From assembly GCF_036669915.1 (NCBI RefSeq), contig NC_089313.1, positions 5,113,331 to 5,177,330 of the forward strand: a DNA stretch of 64,000 nt, read 5' to 3'. Below, piece by piece: positions 13,634-34,449 of the stretch; the first letter of the stretch is position 1, and each line of letters starts with the position of its first letter. Under the pieces are notes generated by a model that worked only from the letters and a program-made list of their open reading frames with translations, did no database searches and had not been told where the DNA came from. The position numbers and the translations under genes were made by a program. The stretch comes from Pocillopora verrucosa (taxonomy: Eukaryota).

Positions 13634-14654
13634 GATGAATATCTCAAACCAGTCCTTGCCTTACTACGCCCCTTGGAACTCTGGGAAGATATGGTAAGAA
13701 TAGGTCCGCAAGGCGTTCTTAGGGCGCGTTCACATCGTCCATGGTCTTGGCTTCTCTTGAATGAAAATTTCTAAGCCTCTTCACGTTGATCTGAAGTCAA
13801 CTGGGATCAAACTTAACAACTTAATAGAGAGATTGTATCAGAGTAAAACGCGCTAAATGTATTGTAGATAAAGTACTCTGGAACTGATGAAGGAATACGT
13901 AAAGCAAGAAGTCAAGGGGTCTAGCAAAGATAATTATTGGTGCCAAATCCATCAAAGTTCTTCCACTACCTCGCCTTCCTTAACCCTTTAAACCCTAACA
14001 TCAATAAAGGTGTTCTCCATACTGTTATCCATGCGTTCCCTAAGGTGCTGACAAGGAGAACTTTTGTAACAATCAACAACTTCTTTAACTGCTGATAAAT
14101 TTCTTTATTTTCATGACCTTACTGCATGATTCAGGAGTGATATTGCGGTGAGAAATTAGATGCTGGTCACCCTTAGGGTTTAAAGGGTCAGGGCCTTTGC
14201 CTGACTCGCGGGGGAAGAAACGCACGTGTCGCAGCGCTAATAATATTAAGGCCTGCCCGCAGGCTAATCTCTCATTGACTCTTCGTGATATCTTGTTGGG
14301 GAGACATGGGGGAAAAACGACCGCACTGAACACTTGCGTCGGCCAATATTCATTTAAGTCCAGAATAGCAAAGGAAAAGACATTTCTTTCTGTTTATAAT
14401 TCTCTTTTATGAACAAATCACCGCACAGCGATACACGCCAATTCTTCAAAAAGACGTCGTTTACCAAACGTCATCCGTAACTAGTGAAAGCTATTCTCGT
14501 GACAAAAAATACTTTTTTCAACATAGCGTTCATTTCTGTTCTTTTGAAAGATTACCAATCTTTATTTAAGGACACAAGTAAATAGCCTAAACGATTAACA
14601 CCACAAAGGGTTGAATGTCTTGAAGTAAAAAAGATTTCAAGGCTTTAGGCCAAC

Positions 14655-14794
14655 CTCTGTTACAACGCCCGCGGCTATTGTTCACCGCTGTAGCGCAGCA
14701 TCTTCCAATATCTTTGTAGTCTTTGTATAATTCAACACAAACGGGTTTGTAGGTGTGAATTACAACCTTCGCATTTGAATTCTTTGTTAAACGT
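14655..14794 (-). pseudogene. Degenerate copy of the HBS1L C-terminal exon in duplication unit A (4-bp and 1-bp deletions cause a frameshift)
   Basis: Aligned to 27688-27832: ggaagatttatgctgcgc becomes ggaagatgctgcgc, and ggtgaaaccatagcc becomes ggtgaacaatagcc. Translation turns to …[23 protein letters not shown]. Confidence 0.7.
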
Positions 14795-15924
14795 CTGAAG
14801 AGGTAAGCAGACATGATGAGAAAACAGTACAGCAAGTTTAAATTGAGTGTAGAGAGTAACTCGGGATTGCCTTAGATTTGGTTAAGTTCGGTATATGATC
14901 AGTCTACAATATTCGCGCCTTCCCCTCCCACAATCAGATTCAAAACTTGGTCACCCGCGTTTTCCTGCACTTCAGATAGTTTACTTGTTTTCACATTGCG
15001 TTCTCATTGGCTCCTCGTGATAATGTCCCATCTCTTGATTGGCTAGCGTGATCACTTTGGTTTTGGTTTTACAGCACATATTACAAATGTGACGTTATCC
15101 CATAATGCGAGAAATACGCTTTTAGATCAAGAGTGTATTCCGCCGCCGAGCTGGCAGCGGAAAAATAAAACAACCAATCACGTAACCCTACAGCAACTTC
15201 ACATCTGCACCAGTAAAAGCAGTGTTTATGACAATACTTAATAACATGTCAATAACAGGACTCAACCAGCGTCCATACTGGACTGAACTTGGGTTATAAA
15301 GACCAACGAATATGGGGTTCTTTTCGTGTAAATGTTGACAAAATCATTTGCATGCTGGCGATAAAAATATAAACATTGTTTTCCCAACGCCATTACCTTG
15401 GGCCCGTCCAATTCTTTTAAAAACTTTAAAATCGAATAATAGAAAAACGAGCAATTGTATCGTGCCTTAAAGAAATCCCTCCAATTAGAAATAGTGCTAA
15501 AATATTCTGTGTGAGACGCTCAATGGCTGAGAAATGAATTCTTCAACATCAGGAATAATAGACCATGGAGGTACTTGAAACTTTGTATTTTGGGGGGCAG
15601 GAAAAGCTTTAAGCTAAAAAGAATAATCTCAATGTATTCCGAAAAAAGCATGACCATGACCCGAGGTTGTTTGACGGGCCAAGTTTTACAGAAAACTACT
15701 CTCCAATCCGAAACTCAGTGGGGAGCCACGTCCACACTGGCCATAATAATATATATATTTAGCCAAGCCTAAAAGCGGAGCTAGCATTTTTTTTTCCCAC
15801 ACAACTTGGACTAGAAACCGGGTTGTCCGACTCGGAACCCAGTGCACTGACCTCTGGACTATTGAACAAAGCCGTGTCGTTGGCGTGCTCGCGGTACAGT
15901 TGACGACGCATGTTAAAAGTAGCA

Positions 15925-15965
15925 CCTTGTACGGTCGTACGGTCGTACGGTCGTACGGTCGTACA
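15925..15965. repeat. Microsatellite (cggtcgta)n, about 4.5 units
   Basis: gtacggtcgtacggtcgtacggtcgtacggtcgtacatcc. Confidence 0.9.
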
Positions 15966-31353: not shown

Positions 31354-31394
31354 ACGTTCAGAAGACTAAGATACAGTGTAACCTCAATTCAACG

Positions 31395-32760
31395 AAGTGC
31401 CAAGAGACTGGGGAAACTCGTTTCGTGTACACTCTGTTGATTTTGTCTACTCTGTACACTCCGTTGATTTTGTCAACTCTGTACGCTCTGTTGATTTTGT
31501 CCACTCTGTACACTCTGTTGATTTTGTCAACTCTGTACACTCTGTTGATTTTGTCCACTCTGTACGCTCTGTTGATTTCGTCCACTCTGTACACTGTTGA
31601 TTTTGTCCACTCTGTACACTGTTGATTTCGTTCACTCTGTACACTCTATTGATTTCGTCCACTCTGTACACTCTGTTGATTTTGTCCACTCTGTTGATTT
31701 TGTCCACTCTGTACACTGTTGATTTCGTCCACTCTGTACGCTCTGTTGATTTTGTCCACTCTGTACACTGTTGATTTCGTCCACTCTGTACACTCTATTG
31801 ATTTTGTCCACTCAGTACGCTCTGTTGATTTTGTCCACTCTGTACACTGTTGATTTCGTCCACTCTGTACACTCTATTGATTTTGTCCACTCAGTACGCT
31901 CTGTTGATTTTGTGCACTCTGTACACTCTGTTGATTTTGTCCACTCTGTACACTCTGTTGATTTTGTCCACTCTGTACGCTCTGTTGATTTTGTCCACTC
32001 TGTACACTCTGTTGATTTTGTCCACTCTGTACACTCTGTTGATTTTGTCCACTCAGTACGCTCTGTTGATTTTGTGCACTCTGTACACTCTGTTGATTTT
32101 GTCCACTCTGTACGCTCTGTTGATTTCGTCCACTCTGTACACTCTGTTGATTTTGTCCACTCTGTACACTGTTGATTTCGTCCACTCTGTACACTTTATT
32201 GATTTTGTCCACTCTGTACATTCTGTTGATTTTGTCCACTCTGTACACTCTGTTGATTTTGTCCACTCTGTACACTGTTGATTTCGTCCACTCTGTACAC
32301 TTTATTGATTTTGTCCACTCTGTACATTCTGTTGATTTCGTCCACTCTGTACACTCTGTTGATTTTGTCCACTCTGTACACTGTTGATTTCGTCCACTCT
32401 GTACACTTTATTGATTTTGTCCACTCTGTACATTCTGTTGATTTTGTCCACTCTGTACACTCTGTTGATTTTGTCCACTCTGTACACTGTTGATTTCGTC
32501 CACTCTGTACACTCTATTGATTTCGTCCACTCTGTACACTCTGTTGATTTTGTCCACTCTGTACACTGTTGATTTCGTCCACTCTGTACGCTCTGTTGAT
32601 TTTGTCCACTCTGTACACTGTTGATTTCGTCCACTCAGTACACTCTGTTGATTTTGTCCACTCTGTACACTCTGTTGATTCTGTCCACTCTGTTGATTTT
32701 GTTAACTCTGTCGATTATGTCAATTCTGTCGATTTTGTTTACTCTGTCGACTCTTGGAGT
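31395..32760. repeat. 27-bp minisatellite array 2 (about 50 units; unit about gtccactctgtacactctgttgatttt), paralogous to array 1 with a diverged consensus
   Basis: Starts about 40 bp after the copy-2 stop. Same period and related motif (gtccact…ct…t.gattt.gt) but array-specific substitutions, consistent with within-array homogenisation. Confidence 0.95.
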
Positions 32761-32900
32761 GTTTTCAGGTTTGCTATTTTCGCTCCTTAACAAAATTACT
32801 ACACTACGGCAGGAACAATTTAAGAACGGTTAATTAATGAACTAGGTCAAGCGACATCCACAGTTTTCGTATTTGGATGTGAACTGAACAGTCAGTTCCC
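32750..32900 (+). repeat. Downstream direct-repeat copy after array 2, unit B
   Basis: ggagtgttttcaggtttgctattttcgctcc…actacggcaggaacaatttaagaacgg…caagcgacatccacagttttcgtatttgg. Confidence 0.7.
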
Positions 32901-34449
32901 AGTTTAGTGTATTTTTTTTAACTCACATAAAATCACTTAAAAACCTTTCAAAATATCGAGCCTCATGCAAGCTTTCTTATACTTACTAGGGGTCTGCAAA
33001 GAGATGTAGGCAAGTAAGCAGGCTTGTTCGTGACTGTACAGACAGACTAATTTCGAACGGTAAGGTTAAAGATGTTTACACCCTAACATCAGTATGCAAC
33101 TTCTCCATACTGTTCTCTATACATTTCCTAAGGTGCTGACGAGGGAGAATTTGTTTCTCAATCAGGAGCTTCTTTATTCTTGTGGCTTTGATGTTTTATT
33201 CAGGGCTGATATTGTATGAAGAAATTAGGCGCTAGTCAAGCTTAAGGGTCAAGGCTTGATTTATCAAGTTTCTCTCACAATTTTCTTGTACTCACGCACA
33301 CGGAGTAAAGTATCGCGTAAAATGACCCGGCCAGGGTTTGGACCCAGACCTTTTAACACAAAATCCAACGCTCTGCCAGTTAATTAAGAGACTCATATTC
33401 CAAAAAGCCACGATAAAATACTTAAAATCGTCAAGTTAGAGTCCAATGTAAATTGAAACCGCTCGTCAAAGAGATTTTCTTTTCAAGCTTAATAATGGAT
33501 TTTTTTTCGGGCAGAAATCATTGAAAAATCTGAGAAATCTTCTTAACATAGTTTATTTGTCAAAATCCACAATGGCTACTCACCATGAATCCCTTGGTGA
33601 TAGGAACACGAATGTTAAAAACTAAAATGCGAGCTTTCAATTTGGTGGTACACTTGATCGGCGAACGGGTTGGACACAAAACAGTTCCCAATCTGAAGAT
33701 AAAAAAACCAAACAAGACTTAGGGCATCTTATTAGTTCGAGTTAACGTTAAGAAGCTCGCGATCGTTTATTCAACCGGCCATCTTTGATTTGGACATAGA
33801 GGCGGCGGCAGGCGGGGATGGGAGGAAGGGCGAAAGACTACTATTCACTCCCCCACCCACCCCTCTCCTTATTCTTGACCGTCGCTCTACAAATTTCTTT
33901 CTCTCCCCAGCCTTCCGCTGCCATCAAAACAAAAGATGGCGGCCATAATTTGCGTTAAGAAAATACTGAGCACTCGCTTGCAAAAATTATGGCTGCTCTG
34001 CAGGCTAACCAAGACTTTGAGTCCCTTACTAATAGCCGTAGAACACTACCATCTTGCGTGGTCAAAAATGATTGATGTACTAAGCTCTCTGAGAACGTTA
34101 TCCACCCACGCAGTATAAATCGTGATATTTTGGGTCATTTTCTGCTACGTGCAAGATTACCTTCATCGTGAAGGACTACAGAGAGATACGTGGAAAGATA
34201 GGGATGAGGGAAATTGTATAGGATTGAAAAAAGCCAAATAAAAAACTCAGCATACATTTTTCAAGATGTACAACCCATAACACAACTCGTTTAATGTAAA
34301 AAAATTGTAGGCGGGCATTTGTCTGCTACCCGTTATCCAACCACCAATGAAATCAGGTCCCTTTTGAACTGTTCGATTGATAGTCTTCTAGCTTCAACAG
34401 TACAACAGGTGTCTCTATGAATCAGGTGCCACAGTCATCCCATACTTAC

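Follow-up and report, generated by a model that had tools for sequence, protein, structure and literature searches.

A probable old tandem segmental duplication of an HBS1L-like 3' end with a nested toxin-like gene and a 27-bp minisatellite in the coral Pocillopora verrucosa

We analyzed a 64,000-nucleotide stretch of the Pocillopora verrucosa genome (contig NC_089313.1 of RefSeq assembly GCF_036669915.1, positions 5,113,331 to 5,177,330 of the forward strand), hereafter called the window, and found that it holds two adjacent, same-orientation copies of the 3' end of an HBS1L-like gene, each with a nested small open reading frame (ORF) and a 27-bp minisatellite. We consider it quite probable that this arrangement is an old tandem segmental duplication of the HBS1L-like 3' end together with a nested toxin-like gene and its minisatellite, by the steps proposed below. 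When the window was compared with itself by BLAST, the 5.1-kb 27-bp array dominated the output. Once that array was set aside, a same-strand collinear chain of 14 unique blocks emerged, pairing positions 13912-26181 with positions 26581-33858 at E values from 1e-17 to 1e-144. The offset between paired blocks is about 12.6-13.4 kb to the left of the arrays and 7.6-8.7 kb to the right of them. We refer to 13912-26181 as unit A; it spans 12.3 kb, of which 5.1 kb is array, and it is the distal, decaying copy, with alignable blocks and broken exon relics, in the space that separates the HBS1L end from the promoter of CCT-zeta. Unit B (26182-33858) is the proximal copy. Its head (26182-26580) is missing from A, and a head of the same type stands before every unit in the relatives described below.

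The original prediction was of a tandem segmental duplication carrying a gene and minisatellite cassette along with copies of HBS1L 3' exons, and the collinear chain, which runs across exons, introns and the nested gene, bears this out. Because the chain takes in exons and introns, the competing scenario of short scattered matches between dispersed miniature inverted-repeat transposable elements (MITEs) is excluded. The units differ by 14.0% substitutions over 3,664 aligned bases (Jukes-Cantor (JC) distance 0.155; 6.5-17.5% per block) and by 31 indel events, rather than by the few percent first proposed, and approximately 52-62% of the non-array sequence of each unit can be aligned. The large unit-specific segments that had been described are real and lie at 17493-18178 in A and at 27117-27488 and 29832-30766 in B. 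Some features would be expected if a mobile element made of the small gene and the minisatellite had inserted twice, independently, alongside dispersed MITEs: the gene and array are flanked by direct repeats, MITEs stand at the unit heads, and the protein family occurs elsewhere in repeat-rich surroundings, as on contig L014, where a lone copy without a nearby array lies near reverse-transcriptase and CENP-B-like ORFs. However, collinearity extends well beyond the cassette into HBS1L exon copies, introns and downstream sequence, with order and orientation preserved, the unit sequences other than the MITEs occur nowhere else in the window, and every close homologue of the small ORF that we examined sits at the HBS1L locus. 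We therefore regard two separate insertions as very improbable.

HBS1L is a housekeeping gene whose product rescues ribosomes stalled on cleaved mRNA. Using GTPase motifs and domain exons, we mapped the HBS1L-like gene of the window to the minus strand, from about 51.6 kb down to 27.65 kb. Unit B contains all three of its last exons, which encode domain III: the antepenultimate exon D3a in the tail of the unit (33584-33692, minus strand) and the penultimate exon D3b (28092-28193, minus strand), both with canonical AG/GT boundaries, and the terminal coding exon (27652-27832, minus strand), which is undamaged from its AG acceptor to its TAA stop and whose protein is 92-96% identical to those of two outgroup corals. 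Unit A retains relics on the same strand. Its terminal exon (14652-14790) is spread over three frames by a 24-bp insertion and deletions of 1 bp and 4 bp, its D3a (25940-26011) is frameshifted after ...SPIKCTIKLKA, and no D3b relic is detectable in the unit. Because the B exons are intact, with splice sites and a stop, and the A exons are frameshifted or absent, B reads as the working 3' end of HBS1L and A as a redundant partial copy stranded between HBS1L and CCT-zeta. It had been proposed that each unit carries a copy of the HBS1L terminal exon. Both copies were located, and what had been overlooked is the other two exons of B, the D3a relic of A, the role of B as the working end of the gene and the identity of the small ORF.

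Long-read contigs from two outgroup corals (L006 and L007) indicate what the locus looks like in single copy, as D3a, D3b and the terminal exon occur once each in both. The intron between D3a and D3b measures 0.4-0.8 kb in these contigs versus 5.4 kb in the window, the small ORF is absent from the HBS1L locus of both, and CCT-zeta lies 5 kb downstream in L006 versus 14 kb in the window. Homologues of the small ORF and terminal exon were found in environmental assemblies, mostly Tara Pacific reef metagenome scaffolds. Three of these (L001, L004 and L005) share the CCT-zeta flank with the window at JC distances of 0.037-0.063; the tandem units on them number at least 2-3, and every unit has its exon copies and a small ORF. 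L001 runs from the flank through two complete units, in both of which exon copies and the small ORF are present, into the start of a third, giving a unit number of at least three versus two in the window. Other contigs match one unit in particular. L008, L009 and L013 are of B type and are 1-3% diverged from unit B, while L010-L012 are of A type, with a distance of 0.109 to A versus 0.137 to B; in the latter three contigs the small ORF is followed by the 27-bp array, within which the contigs break off. Likewise, protein P0109 is an A-type orthologue, recognizable by a diagnostic 7-residue deletion and the C-terminal ...SLR. One relative also has a truncated terminal-exon fragment directly after the small ORF (L001:9382-9435, L002:6614-6667, L003:1602-1655), at a junction that differs from that of the window and indicates what looks like a further rearrangement of the unit.

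The original prediction described the duplication as recent and still evolving. Only the second part of that description holds, in that unit number and array length vary and the arrays contain higher-order repeats. At a JC distance of 0.155, A and B stand 2.5-4 times further apart than the window's flank and its orthologues in congeners do (0.037-0.063), the exons of A are dead, and A-type and B-type orthologues both exist elsewhere. Given this distance and these orthologues, the duplication most likely predates the divergence of the relatives and would be old. Several points weigh against this dating and against a simple tandem history. Divergence is heterogeneous along the locus, which makes dating from distance uncertain: the cassette region and tail are 2-3 times more diverged than the flanks even between near-identical taxa (0.044-0.058 vs 0.020 for the window and L013, its closest relative). 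The trees conflict as well, as the ORF tree places A outside B and the relatives' units, while the tree of the terminal-exon block joins A to its own taxon's B lineage and not to the units of other taxa. Furthermore, the relatives are short-read metagenome scaffolds that may collapse or mis-join repeats, so that their unit counts and array lengths are soft. No contig from the same species that spans the A-to-B junction was recovered, and a unit-to-unit junction was observed in relatives only (L001 and L005).

The uneven divergence and the tree of the terminal-exon block would both be expected if the duplication were in fact recent and its high divergence reflected locally accelerated mutation or recombination near the arrays. 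We find this distinctly improbable. A-type and B-type orthologues lie on separate contigs of other samples, with L010-L012 closer to A than to B and P0109 sharing the A-type deletion and C-terminus; the A exons carry several independent disabling lesions; and all 13 of the non-exon blocks are 11-17.5% diverged. The missing junction contig would be expected of an assembly artefact, whether uncollapsed haplotypes or a false tandem join, which strikes us as scarcely credible here. Substitutions at 14%, large unit-specific segments and a fourfold difference in array length far exceed allelic variation, distinct A-type and B-type sequences occur on independent contigs, and the relatives' independent metagenome contigs contain the same unit-to-unit junction, with sequence like 26182-27121 following a unit that bears the small ORF. 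An old tandem duplication thus remains our preferred reading. The terminal-exon block (14431-14885 in A, 27489-27923 in B) is 5-10% diverged in exon, intron and downstream sequence alike. This uniformly low divergence points to a later exchange between the copies and not to exon-specific selection, and gene conversion between A and B probably took place at this block after the duplication.

We next consider the small ORF, which is antisense to HBS1L, on the plus strand, in both units and in unit B sits within the D3a-D3b intron. A small conserved ORF in each unit was part of the original prediction, and both were recovered. Copy A (18149-18511) encodes 120 amino acids, and copy B (30793-31353) encodes 186, with its core starting at Met 30970, that is, at 30970-31353. 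Both are open to the same stop and differ by one in-frame 21-bp indel, and the full RNase-toxin-like domain described below is intact in A. A relic of the N-terminal extension of ORF A is found at 17382-17492, split off by A-only sequence. Approximately 530 bp directly upstream of ORF A (17600-18132) is absent from the A-type orthologues L010-L012. Because of that absence, this sequence is read as a lineage-specific insertion, which separates ORF A from its N-terminal extension and presumably its promoter.

Whether the nested ORF is a functional gene or a non-functional relic, in which case the duplication would contain a dead gene fragment and satellite DNA, is a matter on which the evidence is divided. 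On the side of a relic, the ratio of nonsynonymous to synonymous substitution rates (dN/dS) is 1.0 for A vs B, 1.36 for B vs its orthologue in L013 and 0.4-1.3 across 11 distinct DNA copies, consistent with weak or no purifying selection. The insertion upstream of copy A has cost it the N-terminal extension. Many of the catalogued variants are 85-amino-acid calls from Met43, possibly truncated copies, and these would lack two conserved histidines. The Logan contig L016, considered as a possible transcript, proved to be plain genomic sequence, and its run is mentioned in no paper that was found. Still, the whole domain is open in both window copies, and the ORF block, although more heavily substituted than any other (17.5%), contains no indels where approximately 3 would be expected. 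Residues that are near-invariant in the family (H7, H12, S25, G66, G69, C75, Y76, T91 and P94) are retained, and some pairs of paralogues have dN/dS values of 0.4-0.5. The reading frames of both window copies and of nine other distinct DNA copies run uninterrupted to a shared stop codon, and all 11 stayed open in 5e-5 of runs of a neutral simulation, a figure that is inflated by ascertainment, since a database of called ORFs, the source of most copies, favors open ones. On balance, we think it possible, though somewhat unlikely, that the ORF is a relic.

The small ORF is not an orphan, since an exhaustive profile search yielded 94 representative clusters, 45 of them at E <= 1e-10. The family core spans about 90 residues, with the pattern ...EHI..NHM.P...GKS.F......PD...HR...R.V.KK.F...VGVHG.....CY.VTVIYD.....IITAFPT, and its named members are distant ones, all hypothetical proteins of the stony coral Oculina patagonica. 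Pfam scans of the two window ORFs alone produced nothing usable, NCBIfam and PHROGs gave nothing consistent for the family, and searches of PDB sequences with family profiles returned no significant match. Divergent members do give recurring sub-threshold matches to PBECR2 (PF18810; best score 17.8 bits at E 0.0039 and best E 0.0014, vs a cut-off of 27.1) and single matches to EndoU_bacteria and DUF4258. The PBECR2 matches occurred in 7/10 and 5/30 family members, neither window copy among them, and no family match reached a curated Pfam cut-off, which counts against the assignment made below. With close homologues only, AlphaFold gave an unusable model (predicted local distance difference test score (pLDDT) 48), whereas with distant members in the alignment it gave two helices on a four-stranded sheet at a pLDDT of 92.9 and a predicted template modelling score of 0.82. 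The predicted fold is of the BECR alpha+beta type. The top PDB match of the model in Foldseek was MafB2-CT (prob 0.96), and the best viral structure matches were C-terminal domains of phage MuF/minor-capsid proteins (prob 0.97-1.00). The EndoU-type toxin set has been listed as H, H, [SNT], [SNT] (PMC3482391), which the near-invariant H7, H12, S25 and T91 of the family resemble; this is a resemblance and not a residue-level superposition. Taken together, the predicted fold suggests that the nested ORF most likely encodes a stand-alone, fast-evolving BECR-type RNase-toxin-like protein, one that is like the BECR toxins by predicted fold and is not a demonstrated member of any Pfam family.

Family members occur in tandem elsewhere. 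Contig L015 (positions 1-20279; ctg20763 of ERZ25067556, the sample that also provided L006) carries four tandem 92-amino-acid members, and approximately 0.5 kb beyond each of them lies a satellite array of 2-5.6 kb whose 335-bp unit is unrelated to the 27-bp repeat. The tandem cassette of a gene and a downstream array thus recurs in the window's genus and in the L015 coral and is not universal, the lone copy on L014 being without a nearby array. In Oculina patagonica, 347-amino-acid proteins end in the nested-ORF domain (KAL9977327-29 and KAL9977337/8; P0211 and P0255-P0257 in our set), and their consecutive locus tags (ACROYT_G014717, 718 and 719, plus 730) on one 64-Mb chromosome describe a tandem cluster. 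We infer that the satellite may drive tandem amplification. A bolder proposal is that these proteins form an undescribed stony-coral family of stand-alone bacterial/phage-type BECR RNase-toxin domains that amplify as gene-and-satellite cassettes, with the satellite promoting unequal exchange, and that serve in a conflict system, for instance defence against viruses or microbes, allorecognition or a selfish toxin element. We hold this to be speculative and, as a whole, unlikely. If it were true, the position inside HBS1L might be more than coincidence.

In both units the small ORF is followed by the 27-bp minisatellite, with the fourfold difference in length that had been noted originally. Minisatellite A (18681-23830, plus strand) has approximately 184 units in perfect register plus degenerate ends, with the consensus CTGTCGATTTCGTCCACTCCGTCTACT, and minisatellite B (31426-32754, plus strand) has approximately 48 units with indels, with the consensus TGTACACTCTGTTGATTTTGTCCACTC. 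Tandem Repeats Finder reported a period of 27 and 87% matches in both, with 189 copies and 0% indels in A (18681-23791) and 48 copies and 4% indels in B (31426-32693). Array A consists of 44 unit variants arranged with higher-order periods of 13, 16 and 26 units, and identity at the 13-unit lag is 94.5% in its first third. Array length is 5.1 kb in A, 1.27 kb in B, at least 22 units in L010 and about 220 bp in L013, where it should be borne in mind that short-read assemblies collapse arrays. In the window, the motif is restricted to the two arrays and a single relic unit upstream of small ORF B (30740-30760, plus strand), which has 1 mismatch to the motif, where chance would give 0.02 matches across the window. 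Each of the three CpG sites of the A consensus reads TG in that of B. The observed/expected CpG ratio is 1.83 in array A (18681-23648; about 2.1 CpG per unit) and 0.53 in array B (31426-32754), compared with 0.48 in the HBS1L body (34-51.6 kb). We considered gene-body methylation as the cause of the CpG loss in array B and found it unsupported, because outside the arrays A and B have the same CpG ratio (0.91 in A, 0.89 in B).

Array A is spanned by long ORFs of 1,695 amino acids on the minus strand and 1,148 on the plus strand, it keeps a perfect 27-bp (9-codon) register over approximately 184 units, and its translation matches the Pfam family DUF6470 at E = 2.5e-33. One might suppose from this that it encodes a real repetitive protein, a reading to which we give almost no credence. 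On direct reading, the consensus unit has no stop codon in 5 of the 6 frames, the openness being due to its T/C-rich composition. The unit variants are mostly C-to-T changes, which in the minus frame alter the first position of codons (D to N, E to K, G to R) and in the plus frame give S to L/F or P to L, so that neither frame is favored, and array B carries frame-breaking indels. The DUF6470 match consists of six repeated low-complexity stretches. This spurious match from an S/T/L-rich repeat (18642-22088, plus strand) is a trap for automatic annotation.

The small ORF and array are bracketed in both units by a 100-200-bp direct repeat, which we call repeat X. All of its arms are on the plus strand and are 78-92% identical. 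In unit A the upstream arm lies at 16942-17087 and the downstream arm is doubled (23845-23920 and 23978-24175); in unit B the arms lie at 29710-29914 and 32787-32883. L013 has an extra tandem copy of 29525-30173, which holds the upstream arm.

From these features we propose the following history. The ancestral locus would have been compact, with introns of less than a kilobase between the last three HBS1L exons and with CCT-zeta approximately 5 kb downstream. The D3a-D3b intron would then have gained, on the opposite strand, a cassette made of an intronless gene for a small basic protein and, 70-170 bp further on, the 27-bp minisatellite, bracketed by the 100-200-bp direct repeat. Head-to-tail duplication, perhaps through unequal crossing-over or a replication-based mechanism, would next have affected some 7-8 kb, reaching from the intron that precedes D3a to a point shortly past the HBS1L stop. 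Proximal copy B would still supply the spliced terminal exons of HBS1L, while distal copy A, lying beyond the end of the gene, would have been dispensable, its exons succumbing to frameshifts and deletion. On balance the genome would have gained a second copy of the nested gene, both copies having an open full-length domain. The arrays would have changed by in-register unequal exchange or slippage, with A growing to 5.1 kb and acquiring its 13- to 26-unit higher-order repeats and B being homogenised on a CpG-decayed variant. Finally, the terminal-exon block was probably exchanged again between the copies by gene conversion.

The MITEs that had been predicted in each unit were found at both unit heads, on the plus strand. 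That of A (13978-14193) is approximately 215 bp long with 21-nt terminal inverted repeats (13978-13998 and 14173-14193), and that of B (26650-26863) is approximately 215 bp long with terminal inverted repeats of about 20 nt. There are at least seven copies in the window (for example at 49525-49731 and 40839-41042), seven of which were aligned with a mean column identity of 78%, and their inverted repeats of 20-21 nt, lying 174 nt apart, are 85-90% complementary, as is expected of a MITE. Recombination between the unit-head MITEs was considered as the origin of the duplication and rejected because homology begins outside the element, 68 bp to its left, and the head in relatives extends 400 bp more. 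Telomere-like hexamers (CCCTAA and TTAGGG) occur in the terminal inverted repeats. Noel et al. (PMC10236652) have described a 188-nt satellite, specific to Porites, that contains a palindromic telomeric sequence.

The tRNA-like or SINE-like stretch that had been proposed at the end of each unit's tail was not substantiated. ARAGORN found no tRNA genes in the window, and Rfam searches at E values up to 0.1 gave nothing credible, only a sub-threshold mir-580 match outside the stretch. What exists is a B-box-like motif, GGGTTTGGACCC, in a 91%-identical segment common to the two units (25600-25740 and 33265-33405), to which, within the window, the stretch is confined. We also observed a second family of short dispersed repeats at 44471-44665, 51991-52074 and 61246-61347 in the window and at L001:3365-3560 and 10781-10976. 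It is inserted in each of the relatives' units at the position equivalent to 27411-27415 and is not at that site in the window units.

The HBS1L-like gene, the rest of which occupies 34449-51646 on the minus strand, has the HBS1 architecture of an N-terminal HBS1 domain, an EF-Tu-type GTPase and domains II and III. The domain II exon lies at 34.5 kb, motifs G4, G3 and G1 at 40.65, 41.87 and 43.44 kb, HBS1_N at 51.1 kb and the start of the gene near 51.5 kb. In the joined exons, Pfam detects GTP_EFTU (E = 5.5e-34) and GTP-eEF1A_C (E = 1.4e-31), and HBS1_N falls just below its cut-off on hand-joined exons (E 6e-5, 23.8 bits vs 26.4). A database homologue of the last exon carries the name HBS1-like protein. 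The gene also has a large serine-rich exon (47187-49031, minus strand), a single open segment of 615 codons that ends ...PFDFSSPSPDDIVNEKHKKAFLRKK and then a stop. This C-terminal end matches PFDFxxxSPDDIV, the C-terminal motif of the SKI7-like short isoform HBS1LV3 (PMC5389692), and the segment is probably an alternative, SKI7-like terminal exon. Directly to the left of unit A, the first coding exon of CCT-zeta (TCP-1 zeta) lies at 13496-13633 on the minus strand and matches a PDB sequence at E = 2.8e-18, residues 1-46 to 1-46.

On its own the duplication matters little. It serves as a worked example of one outcome of partial gene duplication, in which the proximal copy keeps the host gene, the distal exons die and an intron-nested gene is duplicated, and it carries a warning for annotation, in that neither the long ORFs of the array nor the extra exon copies are genes. 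Of wider interest is the nested RNase-toxin-like family, an unannotated, fast-evolving coral family with a confidently predicted bacterial RNase-toxin fold. Its tandem clusters occur in at least three lineages of corals, and in two of these, the window's genus and that of the L015 coral, every copy is closely followed by a satellite array. If the members of this family had RNase activity, they would join the small number of polymorphic-toxin domains that animals are known to have adopted.

Tandem duplication of genes pervades the genomes of corals (Noel et al. 2023, Genome Biol 24:123; PMC10236652), and the duplication described here is therefore an ordinary kind of event for such genomes. None of the words toxin, minisatellite and orphan turned up when the text of that paper was searched, and the HBS1L locus and the nested family are not described there. 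Like the tandem duplicates that it reports, the copies studied here are local and head to tail, differ in age and vary among congeners; unlike those, they comprise only the 3' part of a housekeeping gene, giving a dead partial copy and a second intron-nested gene. The 27-bp head-to-tail arrays of 1.3 and 5.1 kb resemble higher-order minisatellites in that their length varies between paralogues and taxa, and differ from them in that the window array stands immediately 3' of a gene, an arrangement that recurs with the unrelated 335-bp satellite. The 188-nt Porites satellite of PMC10236652 is a different repeat. Macrosatellites such as D4Z4/DUX4 offer an analogy, as they consist of multi-kb tandem units with an intronless ORF in each and a copy number that varies among relatives. 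Unlike D4Z4/DUX4, the units here number two (at least three in a relative), are highly diverged and not homogenised, and derive from part of a host gene.

The BECR-fold RNase toxins, among them YxiD-CT, CdiA-CT, MafB2-CT/EndoU, BrnT/RelE and colicin D, are polymorphic toxins of bacteria and phages (Zhang et al. 2012, PMC3482391). Compared with these, the window protein is a stand-alone eukaryotic protein of approximately 90-190 amino acids and not the C-terminal tip of a large secreted toxin, its ORF has no identified immunity gene, and on direct reading it has no signal peptide, the N-terminus being basic and hydrophilic. Stony corals do offer a precedent for a secreted RNase-toxin domain of bacteria that resides in their genomes, namely a horizontally acquired Ntox44 homologue; its gene is interrupted by introns, encodes a secretion signal and keeps its synteny between species (Levy et al. 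2021, Cell; PMC8162421). Pfam scans at E values up to 1 gave no Ntox44 match to the nested family. Unlike Ntox44, the nested family is intronless at the HBS1L locus, does not carry a signal peptide and is tandemly amplified.

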